NCBI GenBank assembly: GCA_051439425.1
Contig: JBFRWD010000122.1
Coordinates: forward strand, 1 to 30,114
Direction of reading: 5' to 3'
Length of the DNA stretch: 30,114 nucleotides
From: Synechococcus sp.
GTDB taxonomy: Bacteria > Cyanobacteriota > Cyanobacteriia > Thermostichales > PCC-7336
Under the pieces are notes generated by a model. That model saw only the letters and a list, made by a program, of their open reading frames with translations. It was not told where the DNA came from and did not search any database. Made by a program: the position numbers and the translations under genes. The stretch's first letter is position 1. Every line of letters starts with the position of its first letter. This document shows positions 13,386 through 18,743 of this stretch, one piece after another.

Positions 13386-15047
13386 ATGCAAACCTGTCAC
13401 TGTCTCAATCCTGACTGCCAGCAACCCCACAACCCCAAGGATGCCAAACGGTGCGGTACCTGTGGGAGTGCTTTACTGTTGCGGGGTCGGTATCGTGCCT
13501 ATAAGCGTTTGGGGCAGGGGGGGTTCGGGACGACATTTTTGGCGCGCGATCTCGATATGCCCTCTCAGCCGTGGCGTGTGATCAAGCAACTGCGGGTGGC
13601 TGAAGCCTCCGAGCAGGTGGCTCAGCTTTCTAAAGAACTGTTTATGCGAGAGGCCCAGGTTCTGGAGAAGCTGGGGGAGCACTCTCAAATTCCTACCCTG
13701 TACGCCTATTTCGGAGAGGATAACCGCTTTTATCTGGTGCAGGAATTTGTGCTAGGCACGACCCTCTCGAGTGAAGCTCACCGCAATGGAGCCTTTAACG
13801 GCGAGCAAATTCAGCAGGTGCTACGAGAAGTCTCGCTGATTCTTAGCTACGTTCACAGCAAGAACACCGTTCACAGAGATATCAAACCGGCCAACTTGAT
13901 TCGTCGTAAAGATGACGGTCGTCTGGTGTTGATCGACTTTGGTGCGGTGAAGCAAATGGGCATTGCCGGTATGGAAGAGATGCCGTCGTCCGTGACAGCG
14001 ATACGATCGCTAGGATTCTCCCCCCCCGAGCAAATGGCCGGTCATTCTGTCGGTCCTGCCAGCGATTTGTATGCATTAGCTGCTACGTGTATCAATCTGC
14101 TGACGCGCAAATCTCCCAATCGTTTTTTCGACTCCAAGCGTAACTGTTGGACCTGGCAGGATGAAGTGGAGTTAGACGAGCGCCTGACCGGTATTCTGGA
14201 ACGGATGCTGCACCCTACCATGTCGGAGCGCTATGAAAGTGCGACGGCAGTTCTGCGCAGTTTGCAAGAATCCACCAGCATTGGCATGGGGGCTGGTTCC
14301 CGGCTGCACTCTGAGGCTACGGCGGCCCAGTCAACGGTGGCAGCGGGCACAAATCCTATTTCGCGCAATTGGTCGTATCGGGTCGGAGATACTGGATTTA
14401 CTCCGATCTCGCCATATCGACAGGAGCAACCGAGGGCCCGTTCAGCCGTTATCAATCCTGCTTTACCCAGTCGCGATCGCACCAGTCATACCCGTCCCGC
14501 ATCTGCTGATGTTCGCTCGGCCCCCAATCGGCCTGCGTCTAGTCCTTCCTCGTCGATGGAAGGTGCGGATCTGAGCAATCGCAATATGGCAAAGGAAAAC
14601 TTAGCCGGAGTCAATTTGCGTAAGACCAACTTATCGGGCACTAACCTGTCTGGAGCAGACTTACGAGGTGCGGATCTGCGTGGAGCCTCGTTTACCGGTC
14701 CTCCCCCCAAGTGGCGATTCGTGCTGGCAAGAGTTCTTTGGATGATGCGCAACCTAGCAGGTATGTTAGCTGGTGTCCTCTGCTTGGTGTTAGCCGTTGC
14801 TGCGGCTGGATGGGGCATTTACAAACTGACCGGTAATTTGTGGTTGGGAGCAATTGGCGGTTTGTTGGCAGCAATTTGGTCGGGATGGTACGTCTGGCAA
14901 TTCACAGAGCGCCGTTTGGATACGGCTATCATGGTGGCTGACAGCCCGCAACGTCACACACTGTTCAAAGGTGCTGACCTGCGTAAGGCAAAGCTTGACA
15001 GTGGTTTGAGGGCCCATGCCAGGCGGCAGGGGGCTCGACTGAGCTAA
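13386..15047 (+). CDS. Ser/Thr protein kinase with 4-Cys prefix, pentapeptide repeats and two TM helices
   Basis: CLNPDC...[37 protein letters not shown](D/N)LxxxNL repeats; hydrophobic hairpin near the C-terminus. Confidence 0.95.
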
Positions 15048-15067: not shown

Positions 15068-15877
15068 TCAGATGCGGACGGGAATTTGGCGATCGCGCAT
15101 GGCTGCTTTAATCTCGCTGACTGAAAGCTGTCCAAAGTGCAGGAGAGATGCTAACAGTGCTGCTTCTGCCTTGCCATCTATCAATGCATCGCAAATATGG
15201 TCCGTGTTACCCGCTCCGCCCGATGCAATCACCGGAATTTGCACGGCCTCAGCGACACGACGAGTGAGTTCTAGATCGTATCCAGCCTGGGTTCCGTCAG
15301 CATCCATGCTAGTGAGCAAAATCTCTCCCGCTCCGCGGGATGCCATTTCTTTTGCCCATGCAATGGCATCGATCCCTGTTGCGTCTCTGCCGCCCCGAAC
15401 ATACACTTCCCATTCAGCTTCGGTCCCTAGCTGGTTATTCGACAGGTTTGAGGTATGACTTTGCGGTGATGTTGACTTTCGACGGGCGTCGATTGCCACT
15501 ACGATACATTGCTGTCCAAATAGAGCACTAGCCTCGCTGACCAAGTCAGGAGTACGGACAGCGGCGGAATTCATACTGACCTTATCGGCCCCAGCGCGTA
15601 ACAGATCGCGAATATTCTCGACAGTGCGTACCCCACCGCCTACCGTGAGTGGGATGAAAACTTGCTCGGCAGTACGCTGCACCACGTCATAGATGATGCC
15701 ACGATCTTCATGGGTGGCTGTGATGTCCAAAAACACCAGCTCGTCAGCCCCAGCTTCGTTGTACGCTCGGGCGAGCTCAACCGGATCGCCTGCATCAACA
15801 AGATTGACAAAATTGACTCCCTTCACGACCCGACCGGCATTGACATCGAGACAGGGGAGGATGCGTTTGGCTAGCAC
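15068..15877 (-). CDS. hisF: Imidazole glycerol phosphate synthase cyclase subunit HisF
   Basis: (M)[44 protein letters not shown] and PVIASGGAG motifs. GTG 15877 chosen as start; contains a ~15-aa polar insertion after DARR. Confidence 0.97.
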
Positions 15878-16057
15878 GAATACTGGTTTGAGCGCGATGC
15901 TTCGAGTGTTACATATCCAGGTTATGTCAGGAGCAATTGTTGTCTTGAGTCTTCCTGAATGCATGAAGAAATGCTTTATGGGGGAAGCTCGTGCCTCACT
16001 TTGCCTCAGAGTCAGTGAGAATGCGTAGAATCATGGGTCTCCACGCAGGATACTGGC

Positions 16058-16086
16058 TTGACGATCCGAGATTGGCTGACTAAGGT
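16058..16086 (+). promoter_or_regulatory. Sigma70-type promoter for the DAHP synthase leader
   Basis: TTGACG (16058-16063), 17-nt spacer, TAAGGT (16081-16086). Confidence 0.6.
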
Positions 16087-16156
16087 TTATCAATAAGAGT
16101 GCTTGGCGTATTGGTCTTCAGGATGTCAGGCATCAGCTTATATAGGATTTCAGAAC

Positions 16157-16204
16157 ATGCAATCGACTCGATTTAGTTTTTGGTTTACCCAGGGGTGCAC
16201 TTGA
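16157..16204 (+). CDS. Candidate leader peptide 1, MQSTRFSFWFTQGCT* (Phe/Trp control codons)
   Basis: AGGA at 16144-16147; 4 aromatic codons in 5 (16172-16186); stop lies inside the antiterminator 5' arm. Confidence 0.75.
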   Translation: MQSTRFSFWFTQGCT

Positions 16205-16243
16205 CCGTCAACTGCTCCAATGTGTTCAGCGTCAAGTGACCCC
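16192..16243 (+). promoter_or_regulatory. Antiterminator hairpin of attenuator 1
   Basis: GGGGT-g-CACTTGAC (16192-16205) is complementary to GTCAAGTG-ACCCC (16231-16243), 13 bp with one bulge, and overlaps the terminator 5' arm. Confidence 0.7.
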
Positions 16244-16275
16244 CCCGCAAGTGATACGCGAGGGGGTTTCTATTT
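16239..16275 (+). terminator. Intrinsic terminator of attenuator 1
   Basis: ACCCCC-c-CGC [AAGTGATAC] GCG-a-GGGGGT followed by TTCTATTT. Confidence 0.7.
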
Positions 16276-16290
16276 GGGAATCTCTGCACC

Positions 16291-16464
16291 ATGACTATTG
16301 CCTATTCGATTTTGACCGATAGAAACAATCATCTAGGTTTGATGGGGCTATCCAGAGTGGTTGTTTGTTTTGAATGTGCGATGCGTCGCGCCAGCTTTTG
16401 CCCATCGCACATATGGCAATGGTTTTGCACCTTTATGTTTTGGTTCGGACAGTCGTCCGGGTAG
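16291..16464 (+). CDS. Candidate leader peptide 2 (57 aa; in-frame ATGs also at 16342, 16381, 16435) ending ...IWQWFCTFMFWFGQSSG*
   Basis: Open frame from ATG 16291, just after terminator 1, to TAG 16462-16464; 7 Trp/Phe codons in 11 (16414-16446); stop inside the antiterminator 5' arm. True start uncertain. Confidence 0.7.
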   Translation: MTIAYSILTDRNNHLGLMGLSRVVVCFECAMRRASFCPSHIWQWFCTFMFWFGQSSG

Positions 16465-16493
16465 ACCGTTGCACTTGCAAGCCTTCTGCCCGG
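16445..16493 (+). promoter_or_regulatory. Pause (1:2) and antiterminator (2:3) hairpins of attenuator 2
   Basis: 1:2 is TCGGAC[AGTC]GTCCGG (16445-16460). 2:3 is CCGGGTAGA (16457-16465) with TCTGCCCGG (16485-16493), 9 bp including one G-U. Confidence 0.75.
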
Positions 16494-16516
16494 TACCGCT
16501 AGGTCCGGGCCTTTTT
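16488..16516 (+). terminator. Intrinsic terminator (3:4) of attenuator 2
   Basis: GCCCGG-t-ACC[GCTA]GGT-CCGGGC followed by CTTTTTGTT, ~30 nt before the DAHP synthase ATG. Confidence 0.8.
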
Positions 16517-16547
16517 GTTGTTAGTAACTTTTCTGGAGAGTCAACCC

Positions 16548-17417
16548 ATGAATTCAGCGAAATTGGTCTGTAAATCTTCCCCCAAGCAAACCACTAGCAT
16601 CATTACTATTGGCGATCGCCTCGCTATTGGCGGTAGCGATATCGTCATCATGGCTGGCCCCTGTACGATCGAAAGCGAGCAGCAAATGGAAACTGTTGCA
16701 CGACATTTGGCACCGTCGCCAATCGGGATGCTGCGGGGGGGAGCCTACAAGCCCCGCACCTCTCCCTATAGTTTTCAGGGCTTGGGGCCGCAAGGTCTCG
16801 ACATCATTGCCAATGTCGGACGTACTTACAATCTCCCGGTTGTGACTGAAGTTATGGCAGTAGAGCAGATCCCGCTGGTGAGCGATCGCGCGGACATGTT
16901 GCAGGTGGGTAGCCGTAACATGCAAAACTTTGACCTACTCAAAGCCGTCGGTCAGAGCGATCGACCCGTTCTCCTTAAACGCGGGCTGGCCGCAACTCTA
17001 GAAGAATTCGTCATGGCGGCTGAGTACATTCTCAGCTATGGAAACCCAAACGTCGTGTTGTGCGAGCGGGGCATTCGCAGTTTTGATTCGTACACGCGAA
17101 ATGTCTTGGACCTGGGCGCAGTTGTAGCGTTAAAGCAGCTTGTCCACCTGCCAGTCATTGTCGATCCGTCACATGCATCGGGACGCCGAGAGCTGGTAGC
17201 CGATCTAGCGCGGGCGGCTATCGCTTGCGGTGCTGATGGGCTGATGATCGAGTGCCATCCCACTCCCGAACTCTCCGTGTCAGATGCTGCCCAAGCCTTG
17301 TCCTTGGATGCTGCTGTGAATCTTGCAGAAAGTTTGCGACCGATTGCCGCAGCTGTAGGTCGTAGCTTAGCTACTGGGCGATCGCTCGCACCATTAGGTG
17401 AACTTGCCCGCACCTGA
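16548..17417 (+). CDS. aroF: DAHP synthase, type I-beta, catalytic domain only (289 aa)
   Basis: IMAGPCTIES, RGGAYKPRTSPYSFQGLG, QVGSRNMQNF, LCERGIR and VDPSH motifs. GGAGAG SD before ATG 16548; only ~30 residues precede the AGPC motif. Confidence 0.95.
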   Translation: MNSAKLVCKSSPKQTTSIITIGDRLAIGGSDIVIMAGPCTIESEQQMETVARHLAPSPIGMLRGGAYKPRTSPYSFQGLGPQGLDIIANVGRTYNLPVVTEVMAVEQIPLVSDRADMLQVGSRNMQNFDLLKAVGQSDRPVLLKRGLAATLEEFVMAAEYILSYGNPNVVLCERGIRSFDSYTRNVLDLGAVVALKQLVHLPVIVDPSHASGRRELVADLARAAIACGADGLMIECHPTPELSVSDAAQALSLDAAVNLAESLRPIAAAVGRSLATGRSLAPLGELART

Positions 17418-17648: not shown

Positions 17649-18743
17649 GTGTCGCGATTCTTATTTGTTGGATCTACGGCTGCGTACAGTGGGAAGTCCG
17701 CCATTATTTTGGGGCTTGCCAGTCACTTGCAACAGCAAGGTATAGCTGTCGCATATGGAAAACCTCTGGGGGCGTGCATGGGGGGAGACTGTTTGCCGGA
17801 TGGCTCCGACCCCGATGTGAAATTTATTGGGGATTGGCTGAGATTACCTCAGGAATGCAAGCTACCCACCATTGCTCGACTCGACTCAGAGACTGTGATG
17901 GAGGCAATTGACGAGACAACTCGCATTGACTATTCTGCGAAGCTGGCAGCGTATCAGCAACAGTGCAGTGCTCAAATCAAGATATTGGAAGGGCCTGGAG
18001 ATTTGCAGGAGGGGCAACTGTTTCAGCTTTCGCTGGCAGACATGGCTACTCGTTTAGATGCTTCCATCTTGTTACTCGTGCGTTACAACTCTGCTGTGGT
18101 AATCGATAACGTATTGGGTGCCCAAAAACTGCTGGGGGATCGACTGATTGGCGTTGTCTTTAATGACGTTTCCCCAGATGAGCGAACAACCGTTACCGAA
18201 CGTGTGGTGCCTTACCTCGAACATCACCACATCCCGGTTTTGGGTATCTTGCCGACCAACCGCATTTTGCGCAGCATTAGCGTTGACGATCTAGTGCATC
18301 AGCTAGGAGCTCAGGTTTTGTGTTGCGAGGATCGTTTGGATCTCTTGGTGGAAGAGATTGCCATCGGTGCCATGAACGTGAACTCAGCATTGAAGTATTT
18401 TCGCAAGTCGGAGCACAAAGCGGTGATCACGGGGGGCGATCGCACCGACATACAATTGGCAGCTCTGGAAACTTCCACTAATTGCCTGATTTTAACCGGT
18501 CAACTGCCGCCAACTGATTTGATTCGTCAGCGGGCTGAAGAACTAGAAATACCTATTTTGTCAGTGGATCTTGACACACTGACAACGGTGGAACGCATTG
18601 AGCGGGTCCTGGGCCAGGCCCGATTGCATGAGGAAGTTAAAGTTCGCTGTATTGAAGAGTTAATCGATCGCGAACTCGATTTCTCCCGTTTATTCGACCT
18701 GCTTGACATCCCCCATCCGCACGAGAAAGTCAAGTCTGCATAA
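17649..18743 (+). CDS. Phosphotransacetylase-N-terminal-like protein (BioD-like P-loop plus DRTGG domain)
   Basis: AYSGKS, YGKP, ILEG, IGAM and ITGGDRTDIQLAALE...LILTG motifs; no PTA catalytic domain. Confidence 0.9.
   Translation: MSRFLFVGSTAAYSGKSAIILGLASHLQQQGIAVAYGKPLGACMGGDCLPDGSDPDVKFIGDWLRLPQECKLPTIARLDSETVMEAIDETTRIDYSAKLAAYQQQCSAQIKILEGPGDLQEGQLFQLSLADMATRLDASILLLVRYNSAVVIDNVLGAQKLLGDRLIGVVFNDVSPDERTTVTERVVPYLEHHHIPVLGILPTNRILRSISVDDLVHQLGAQVLCCEDRLDLLVEEIAIGAMNVNSALKYFRKSEHKAVITGGDRTDIQLAALETSTNCLILTGQLPPTDLIRQRAEELEIPILSVDLDTLTTVERIERVLGQARLHEEVKVRCIEELIDRELDFSRLFDLLDIPHPHEKVKSA

Follow-up and report, generated by a model that had tools for sequence, protein, structure and literature searches.

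In a genome labelled Synechococcus sp. (assembly GCA_051439425.1, contig JBFRWD010000122.1), the messenger RNA of a short DAHP synthase (3-deoxy-7-phosphoheptulonate synthase) very probably opens with a 5' leader that is built, to judge from comparative sequence analysis, of two ribosome-dependent transcription attenuators in series. The stretch of DNA that was analysed, hereafter the window, is 30,114 nucleotides (nt) long, and the two units lie one after the other in a 583-nt intergenic region between the divergent hisF gene and the gene for the 289-residue DAHP synthase. The units share a common anatomy, in which a short open reading frame (ORF) with a run of phenylalanine (Phe) and tryptophan (Trp) codons is followed by an antiterminator and a terminator; this anatomy and its codon pattern are conserved, the helices covary, and the device is linked exclusively to this one gene. 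That the ORFs are translated, that ribosomes stall in them, that transcription terminates and that the two units multiply each other's effect is what we infer from these observations. The elements listed by an earlier note on this DNA, which had been made from the letters alone (leaders, antiterminators, terminators, hairpins, a Shine-Dalgarno sequence and the start codon), could all be located in the sequence, with small corrections.

Anatomy of the two units

The features of the intergenic region and its flanking genes are as follows.

15068-15964, minus strand: hisF (PF00977)
16058-16086, plus strand: candidate sigma-70-type promoter, on the basis of sequence; -35 TTGACG at 16058-16063, 17-nt spacer, -10 TAAGGT at 16081-16086
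16144-16147, plus strand: AGGA, 9 nt upstream of the ATG at 16157
16157-16204, plus strand: leader ORF 1, ATG at 16157, 15 codons and TGA, MQSTRFSFWFTQGCT
16172-16186, plus strand: Phe/Trp run of leader ORF 1 (FSFWF)
16192-16243, plus strand: antiterminator 1, 5' arm 16192-16205 pairing with 3' arm 16231-16243; predicted fold of -23.2 kcal/mol
16238-16276, plus strand: terminator 1, stem 16238-16248 / 16258-16268, then U tract UUUCUAUUU to 16276; predicted fold of -17.8 kcal/mol
16291-16464, plus strand: leader ORF 2 in its longest form, 57 codons, TAG at 16462-16464; C-terminal end before the stop ...HIWQWFCTFMFWFGQSSG / ...WQWFCTFMFWFGQSSG
16414-16446, plus strand: Trp/Phe run of leader ORF 2 (WQWFCTFMFWF)
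16444-16461, plus strand: 1:2 (anti-antiterminator) hairpin of unit 2, 16444-16450 pairing with 16455-16461, 7 base pairs; predicted fold of -8.6 kcal/mol
16455-16496, plus strand: antiterminator 2, 5' arm 16455-16465 pairing with 3' arm 16485-16496, by predicted fold
16488-16522, plus strand: terminator 2, stem 16488-16497 / 16502-16510, U5 at 16512-16516, then GUUGUU; predicted fold of -17.3 kcal/mol
16535-16538, plus strand: Shine-Dalgarno-like GGAG, from the sequence, 9 nt ahead of the DAHP synthase ATG at 16548
16548-17417, plus strand: gene for a short type I-beta DAHP synthase, 289 residues (PF00793, E 2.9e-75)

In each unit the 3' arm of the antiterminator and the 5' arm of the terminator have bases in common, 16238-16243 in unit 1 and 16488-16496 in unit 2 by the predicted folds, so that the two folds are mutually exclusive. 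The TGA of leader 1 (16202-16204) lies inside the 5' arm of antiterminator 1, and the 5' arm of antiterminator 2 consists of the last two sense codons of leader 2 together with its TAG. Thus the position that the earlier note had given to both leader stops, within an antiterminator arm that competes with the terminator, is borne out by the folds and by the conserved helices described below. Its first leader, with antiterminator and terminator, is also in place, with the start now put at the ATG at 16157 and the U tract found to be interrupted. The second leader, with 1:2, 2:3 and 3:4 hairpins and a U tract, is likewise present, its start being ambiguous among three in-frame ATGs at 16291 (57 residues), 16342 (40 residues) and 16381 (27 residues). 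When unit 2 is folded as a whole, an extra helix appears between 16416-16428, which holds the first Trp codons, and 16461-16472.

The promoter that had been proposed, TTGACG-17-TAAGGT, exists in the sequence and is kept in all four genomes of the genus, with TTGAC invariant and the -10 element retained as TAnnnT; it matches 8 of 12 consensus positions, which the rules of our consensus scan exclude, and it was not called by that scan. A simple terminator scan called neither terminator 1 nor terminator 2, and by our reading these misses are attributable to the loop and bulge of terminator 2 and to the broken U tract of terminator 1, which fall outside the scan rules.

Conservation, coding and pairing

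The comparison rests on 96 orthologue loci: the window, the loci of 15 relatives (65-84% protein identity) and 80 named ones among the roughly 460 that turned up when every species was scanned through a single genome. Among the named loci are those of Nostoc, Microcoleus, Calothrix, Scytonema, Tolypothrix, Phormidesmis, Oculatella, Leptolyngbyaceae, Elainellaceae, Crinalium, Coleofasciculus, Desertifilum and others. Some genomes are counted in both sets of loci, and the leaders of L012 and L093, and of L013 and L090, are identical. A leader-1-type ORF was found at 91 of the 96 loci and a leader-2-type ORF at 93, the window's own leader 1 having been entered by hand because its U tract failed the T-run filter. 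Neither unit was found at two loci (L059 and L103) with upstream sequence of just 47 and 102 nt, and at two others (L085 and L100), where the contig breaks off, only leader 2 is present; all four cases are ends of contigs. The consensus peptides, each followed by the stop, are M..SYFYFWF.VVH.E for leader 1 and M..SWFYGFYFWPR.SSG for leader 2. When the same detector was run as a control on 12 loci of long paralogues and on the type I-alpha locus of the window's own genome, the 13 loci gave 3 matches, none of them like either leader. The recurrence of the two units, taken together with this control, points to a pattern beyond chance.

Several features of the leader ORFs look like signs of translation and suggest that they are read as codons. 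An ATG stands in frame in 89 of 91 leader-1 and 84 of 93 leader-2 ORFs, and lengths are confined, with modes of 18 residues for leader 1 (63/91) and 20 for leader 2 (53/93) that equal the medians. The last 16 codons of the homologues contain on average 6.0 aromatic codons in leader 1 and 7.0 in leader 2. The positions next to an invariant Trp codon hold an aromatic codon in 77-91 of the 91 leader-1 and 67-93 of the 93 leader-2 sequences, and at the aromatic positions F, Y and W interchange freely. Codons for tyrosine (Tyr) are used synonymously at ratios near 1:1 (TAC 39/TAT 26; TAT 28/TAC 27; TAT 34/TAC 33), and all three aromatic amino acids are encoded in 85 of the 91 leader-1 and 86 of the 93 leader-2 ORFs. 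The stop is the seventh codon after the last aromatic codon in 62/91 and 77/93 homologues, and the sixth in the window. The codons of the peptide tails, on the other hand, are fixed as nucleotides (GTT in 76/89, CAC in 64/89 and GGG in 80/92 sequences), since they form the 5' arms of the antiterminators, and conservation of the tails at the RNA level argues against a specific arrest peptide.

Unit 1 (alignment A1, 89 sequences) and unit 2 (alignment A2, 92 sequences) were aligned separately, and pairs were counted for specified structures.

Antiterminator 1 outer helix: 13 pairs, 88.3% of cells paired, 8 pairs changed on both sides
Terminator 1 helix: 9 pairs, 97.5% of cells paired, 6 pairs changed on both sides
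Antiterminator 2 outer helix: 8 pairs, 96.2% of cells paired, 2 pairs changed on both sides
Terminator 2 helix: 10 pairs, 95.7% of cells paired, 6 pairs changed on both sides

In antiterminator 1 one column pair occurs as G-C (35), U-A (19), C-G (16) and A-U (3), and the closing pair of terminator 2 is A-U in 44 sequences against G-C in 39. Whole structures are 78-96% paired, compared with 15-68% in controls whose 3' partners had been slid by 1-3 columns. The conservation of aromatic codons and the covariation of stems among orthologues, for which the earlier note had looked to further genomes, are therefore both found, the former at the 91 and 93 of 96 loci and the latter as compensatory changes in the 89 and 92 aligned sequences. 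In unit 2 the 1:2 hairpin is paired to 86% across the 92 sequences, its covariation being weak and its pair counts not above those of shuffles; it is kept in all four genomes of the genus, where one C-to-U change retains a G-U pair. No evident 1:2 hairpin was seen in unit 1.

The link to the gene was examined with a covariance model built on unit 2 (R1), which was run on 151 genomes drawn evenly from the class. At an expectation value (E) of 0.01 or less, 54 of these genomes contained a match; at E <= 1e-5 there were 49 matches, each from a different genome. The best 30 matches all lie on the same strand as a short DAHP synthase gene and 26-118 nt upstream of it. Presence follows the family, with matches in 5/5, 8/8, 4/4, 5/5 and 7/9 genomes of five families and in 0/7 to 0/9 genomes of six others. 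In a sample of 151 genomes from the whole phylum, matches at E <= 1e-5 were found in 20, all of the same class.

Three metagenome-assembled genomes (MAGs) labelled Candidatus Obscuribacter, Candidatus Sericytochromatia and Actinomycetota (loci L050, L070 and L096) have both leaders ahead of the same gene (68-69% identity), which could be due to mis-binning or to a genuine distribution wider than the class. Searched by nhmmer with both unit profiles, the window's own genome gave no second copy of either unit. A generic scan of that genome for an aromatic-rich ORF tail followed by a terminator was set aside, its 132 matches being mostly noise and the top one (C123) lying out of frame inside a coding region. 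The profiles of unit 1 and unit 2 find each other with weak, colinear similarity (best E 9.8e-6; at E < 1, 23 matches among the 89 unit-1 and 9 among the 92 unit-2 sequences), which on the sequences would fit duplication and convergence alike.

Proposed mechanism and alternatives

In each unit, we propose, a ribosome would translate the short leader ORF with RNA polymerase transcribing just ahead of it. When charged tRNA-Phe and tRNA-Trp are ample, the ribosome would reach the stop inside the 5' arm of the antiterminator and block that structure, the GC-rich terminator would fold, and transcription would end at the U tract. When either charged tRNA is scarce, the ribosome would stall in the aromatic run, a few codons upstream of the stop; the 5' arm would then be free to pair with the terminator's 5' half, and polymerase would read through. 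A transcript would have to clear both gates to reach the gene, so that read-through would approximate the product of two probabilities, which would keep the basal level low and steepen the response.

The leader codons match the end products of the pathway, Phe, Tyr and Trp, which speaks for attenuation. The serial Phe/Trp attenuators of the earlier note thus agree with an anatomy conserved across many cyanobacterial families; its description of them as an AND-like gate is not apt, because both leaders hold Phe and Trp codons and would sense the same signals. The likely gain from doubling is a multiplied response with less leak. Rho is described as absent from cyanobacteria in the part of PMC12360218 available to us, and without Rho regulated termination there would need intrinsic terminators.

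A number of points weigh against this mechanism. Shine-Dalgarno-like motifs are rare ahead of leader 1 (5/91), and in the window's genus the start of leader 2 appears ambiguous from the sequence. Lacking an evident 1:2 hairpin, unit 1 should have read-through as its default state in the absence of a ribosome closely coupled to polymerase, and transcription-translation coupling in cyanobacteria may be tight or loose. A ribosome covers some 12-13 nt on the 3' side of its A site. On that figure, one that stalls at either of the last two aromatic codons would overlie a portion of the 5' arm, and only stalls early in the run would free it fully. Minimum-free-energy (MFE) folds do not agree on a default state across the loci and are sensitive to segment boundaries: among the 89 unit-1 sequences, 30 fold with the antiterminator, 40 with the terminator and 19 with neither, and the corresponding numbers for the 92 unit-2 sequences are 19, 71 and 2. 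Finally, the interrupted U tract of the window's terminator 1, unlike those of its relatives, may make it a weaker and perhaps inefficient terminator.

The difference between the units prompts a tentative extension of the mechanism, which we hold to be doubtful, namely that they are not redundant and together work as a proofreading gate in which each fails in the opposite way from the other. Unit 1, without a 1:2 hairpin, would terminate solely when the ribosome completes its leader, and unit 2, with a 1:2 hairpin and a fold that favours the terminator, would read through solely when the ribosome is stalled in the run. General translation failure, or a polymerase that outruns the ribosome, would then not open both gates; aromatic-specific stalling alone would. 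If true, the conserved pair would show directly that a leading ribosome is kept near RNA polymerase in cyanobacteria, which have no Rho, and would represent a natural two-stage design that rejects false starvation signals.

Other explanations start from the same observations. The leader peptides might be arrest peptides similar to TnaC, which would sense free aromatic amino acids in the ribosome and not charged tRNA. The residues after the aromatic run do look conserved as peptide (..VH.E before the stop in leader 1, ..WPR.SSG in leader 2), yet the GTT and GGG counts given above place this conservation at the nucleotide level, where it coincides with the arms of the antiterminators and of the 1:2 hairpin. 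Moreover, where tail codons change the pairing partner changes too, the tails of the genus differ (TQGCT and GQSSG before the stop) with pairing kept, and the free exchange of F, Y and W is not what such a peptide would lead one to expect; we regard it as extremely unlikely. The least likely of all, in our estimate, is a ligand- or protein-binding switch (a riboswitch, or a T-box-like or TRAP-like element) with incidental small ORFs. Mutually exclusive, conserved hairpins upstream of a biosynthetic gene are riboswitch-like as well, and the scarcity of Shine-Dalgarno-like motifs ahead of leader 1 is in keeping with incidental ORFs. However, a scan of 15900-16700 with the covariance models of Rfam 15 at E up to 10 gave four chance-level matches to unrelated families, each with less than one third of the gathering score, and no match to the Trp, Phe, His, Leu, Thr or other leader families of that collection; there is also no conserved unpaired pocket outside the helices. 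Start codon, frame, length and the position of the stop relative to the antiterminator are conserved, Tyr codons vary synonymously, and the codon content fits the end products of the pathway.

Whether the hairpins act mainly at the level of termination deserves separate mention, as a preprint argues, in the part available to us, that canonical terminators explain a minority of cyanobacterial operon ends (PMC12642595). An action mainly on the translation of DAHP synthase or on messenger RNA stability is nevertheless very unlikely given that both stems are GC-rich with U tracts directly 3' of them, conserved in the alignments, and that terminator 2 ends 26-118 nt ahead of the start codon and excludes the Shine-Dalgarno sequence. 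Attenuation would also release two short, stable, terminator-capped RNAs, and these or the leader peptides could act in trans as well, for which rnTrpL and peTrpL of Sinorhizobium meliloti offer a precedent (PMC7298713, as far as the available part of that source goes). We think such an additional role unlikely, since the peptide tails are explained by RNA structure and no pointer to a target was obtained, the search for other copies or complementary sites having been a profile search of the window's genome only.

Related systems, the enzyme and variants

The attenuators of trpL-trpEDCBA and pheL-pheA in Escherichia coli are the closest models for the proposed mechanism. In the numbering of regions 1 to 4 used for those leaders, the window's unit 2 also appears to have a 1:2-type hairpin. 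The likeness extends to the short leader ORF in which codons for the end product form a run and to mutually exclusive terminator and antiterminator structures between which the position of the ribosome decides, as these are presented in the part of PMC11802643 available to us. The cyanobacterial device differs in having no similarity to them in sequence or by Rfam model, in belonging to a different phylum, one without Rho, and in consisting of two complete serial units. In addition, its stops lie inside the 5' arm of the antiterminator, unit 1 is without an evident 1:2 hairpin, and most of the cyanobacterial relatives would sense three amino acids at once.

Leader-peptide control of DAHP synthase is already known or predicted elsewhere, in Corynebacterium glutamicum and Acholeplasma, respectively. 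The aroR-aroF attenuator of C. glutamicum was reportedly studied by Neshat et al. in 2014. There the aroR leader peptide, with the motif Phe-Tyr-Phe, precedes the DAHP synthase operon (aroF), and ribosome stalling under Phe limitation raises transcription (PMC11802643). As described in the available part of that source, aroR is a single unit for which no Trp codon is reported, from a different phylum; the cyanobacterial device has two units, the leaders in the window's genus have no Tyr codons, and the sequences are apparently unrelated. The uORFC-13-1 motif of Acholeplasma is a predicted upstream ORF with Phe codons and an intrinsic terminator ahead of aroF (Brewer et al. 2021, PMC8632094). 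It resembles our units in the placing of a Phe-codon ORF beside an intrinsic terminator ahead of a DAHP synthase gene; compared by its description in the part of the paper available, it is a single, predicted unit confined to Acholeplasma and environmental sequences.

For the tandem arrangement, the mgtCBR leader of Salmonella, with its two attenuators and two short ORFs, has been termed a singular example (Lee and Groisman 2012, PMC3641672). From what the available part of that paper describes, its ORFs answer different signals, ATP and proline-charged tRNA, in an additive manner, whereas the cyanobacterial units are alike in the kinds of codon they contain and stand ahead of a biosynthetic gene.

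The full-text literature yielded no description of such a device in cyanobacteria, most subscription journals lying outside the search, so that an older report is possible. A 2016 survey states, in the part available to us, that there were no reliable data on attenuation in cyanobacteria (PMC4833913), and the earlier note, which knew of no characterised leader-peptide attenuation in the phylum, agrees with both. Word searches of the main text of two recent papers on cyanobacterial termination gave no occurrence of 'leader peptide', 'DAHP' or 'aromatic', and 'attenuat' and 'leader' are also absent from the main text of PMC12642595. What would be new here, on comparative grounds, is a textbook mechanism in doubled and multivalent form in a phylum for which we found no report.

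Control by leader-peptide attenuation ranks among the founding examples of gene regulation, and a conserved, gene-specific pair would extend it to cyanobacteria, would imply that their ribosomes trail RNA polymerase closely enough to decide termination, and would show end-product control of a DAHP synthase that has no regulatory domain. For the engineering of the cyanobacterial shikimate pathway, it would offer a compact natural sensor of aromatic amino acids in a doubled, low-leak form.

The window's enzyme scores 253.1 bits with PF00793 (cut-off 25.5), 350.2 bits with TIGR01361, the type I-beta family (cut-off 267.75), and 388.3 bits with NF006421 (cut-off 335). The last match covers profile positions 71-336 of 338, and the enzyme is therefore without the first 70 or so positions, which correspond to the N-terminal domain. 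Long paralogues, present in many of the same genomes, have an N-terminal extension of 66-77 residues, which from type I-beta enzymes we take to be a regulatory domain, and no leaders. Attenuation may thus stand in for allosteric feedback on the enzyme that lacks this domain.

A second DAHP synthase is encoded in the window's genome (G000, contig C110, L118:1372-2448); it is of type I-alpha, similar to aroFGH and 358 residues long, and its presence rules out the idea that the attenuated gene is the sole entry to the pathway. The leader detector found no aromatic leader upstream of the type I-alpha gene, and a type II DAHP synthase was not found in this genome, which is 96% complete. Close to the locus, the window also encodes a serine/threonine protein kinase with pentapeptide repeats and a protein with DRTGG and AAA_26 domains (13386-15047 and 17649-18743), with no obvious link to aromatic synthesis.

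The window's genus departs from the other loci in several respects. Tyr codons are absent from both aromatic runs in all four genomes, the runs being FSFWF or FNFWF in leader 1 and FMFWF, FCFWF or FFSSFFWF in leader 2, so that the device should sense Phe and Trp only in this genus; as a natural experiment, the loss bears on the question of which amino acids the device senses. Between terminator 1 and the second aromatic run the genus has some 100 nt more than the other loci, and its leader-2 ORFs have 27-64 residues. In the window, a strong hairpin at 16374-16412 (-17 kcal/mol) lies within these extra 100 or so nt, inside the long form of leader ORF 2, and locks away the in-frame ATG at 16381; the closest relative (G003) does not retain the sequence of this hairpin.

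Some individual loci show variants of the arrangement. In a Microcoleus MAG (L107), a rearrangement has removed unit 1 and the start of leader 2, and an unrelated hairpin lies just upstream. Likewise a natural single-unit variant, locus L014 (genome G049) has only a unit of the leader-1 type, situated 131 nt ahead of the gene. In genome G054 (L025) a single small ORF, MKISQYWYSFTFRSATEVRHRSG followed by the stop, is apparently a mix of both leader types and lies about 321 nt upstream of a DAHP synthase paralogue of 54% identity; the unit profiles gave no match to it. At locus L011 of genome G001, one of those of the window's genus, in the region aligned to window positions 16447-16464, TAG replaces CAG four codons ahead of the usual stop, so that leader 2 ends ...FFWFG, and the RNA arms 3' of this early TAG are unchanged.

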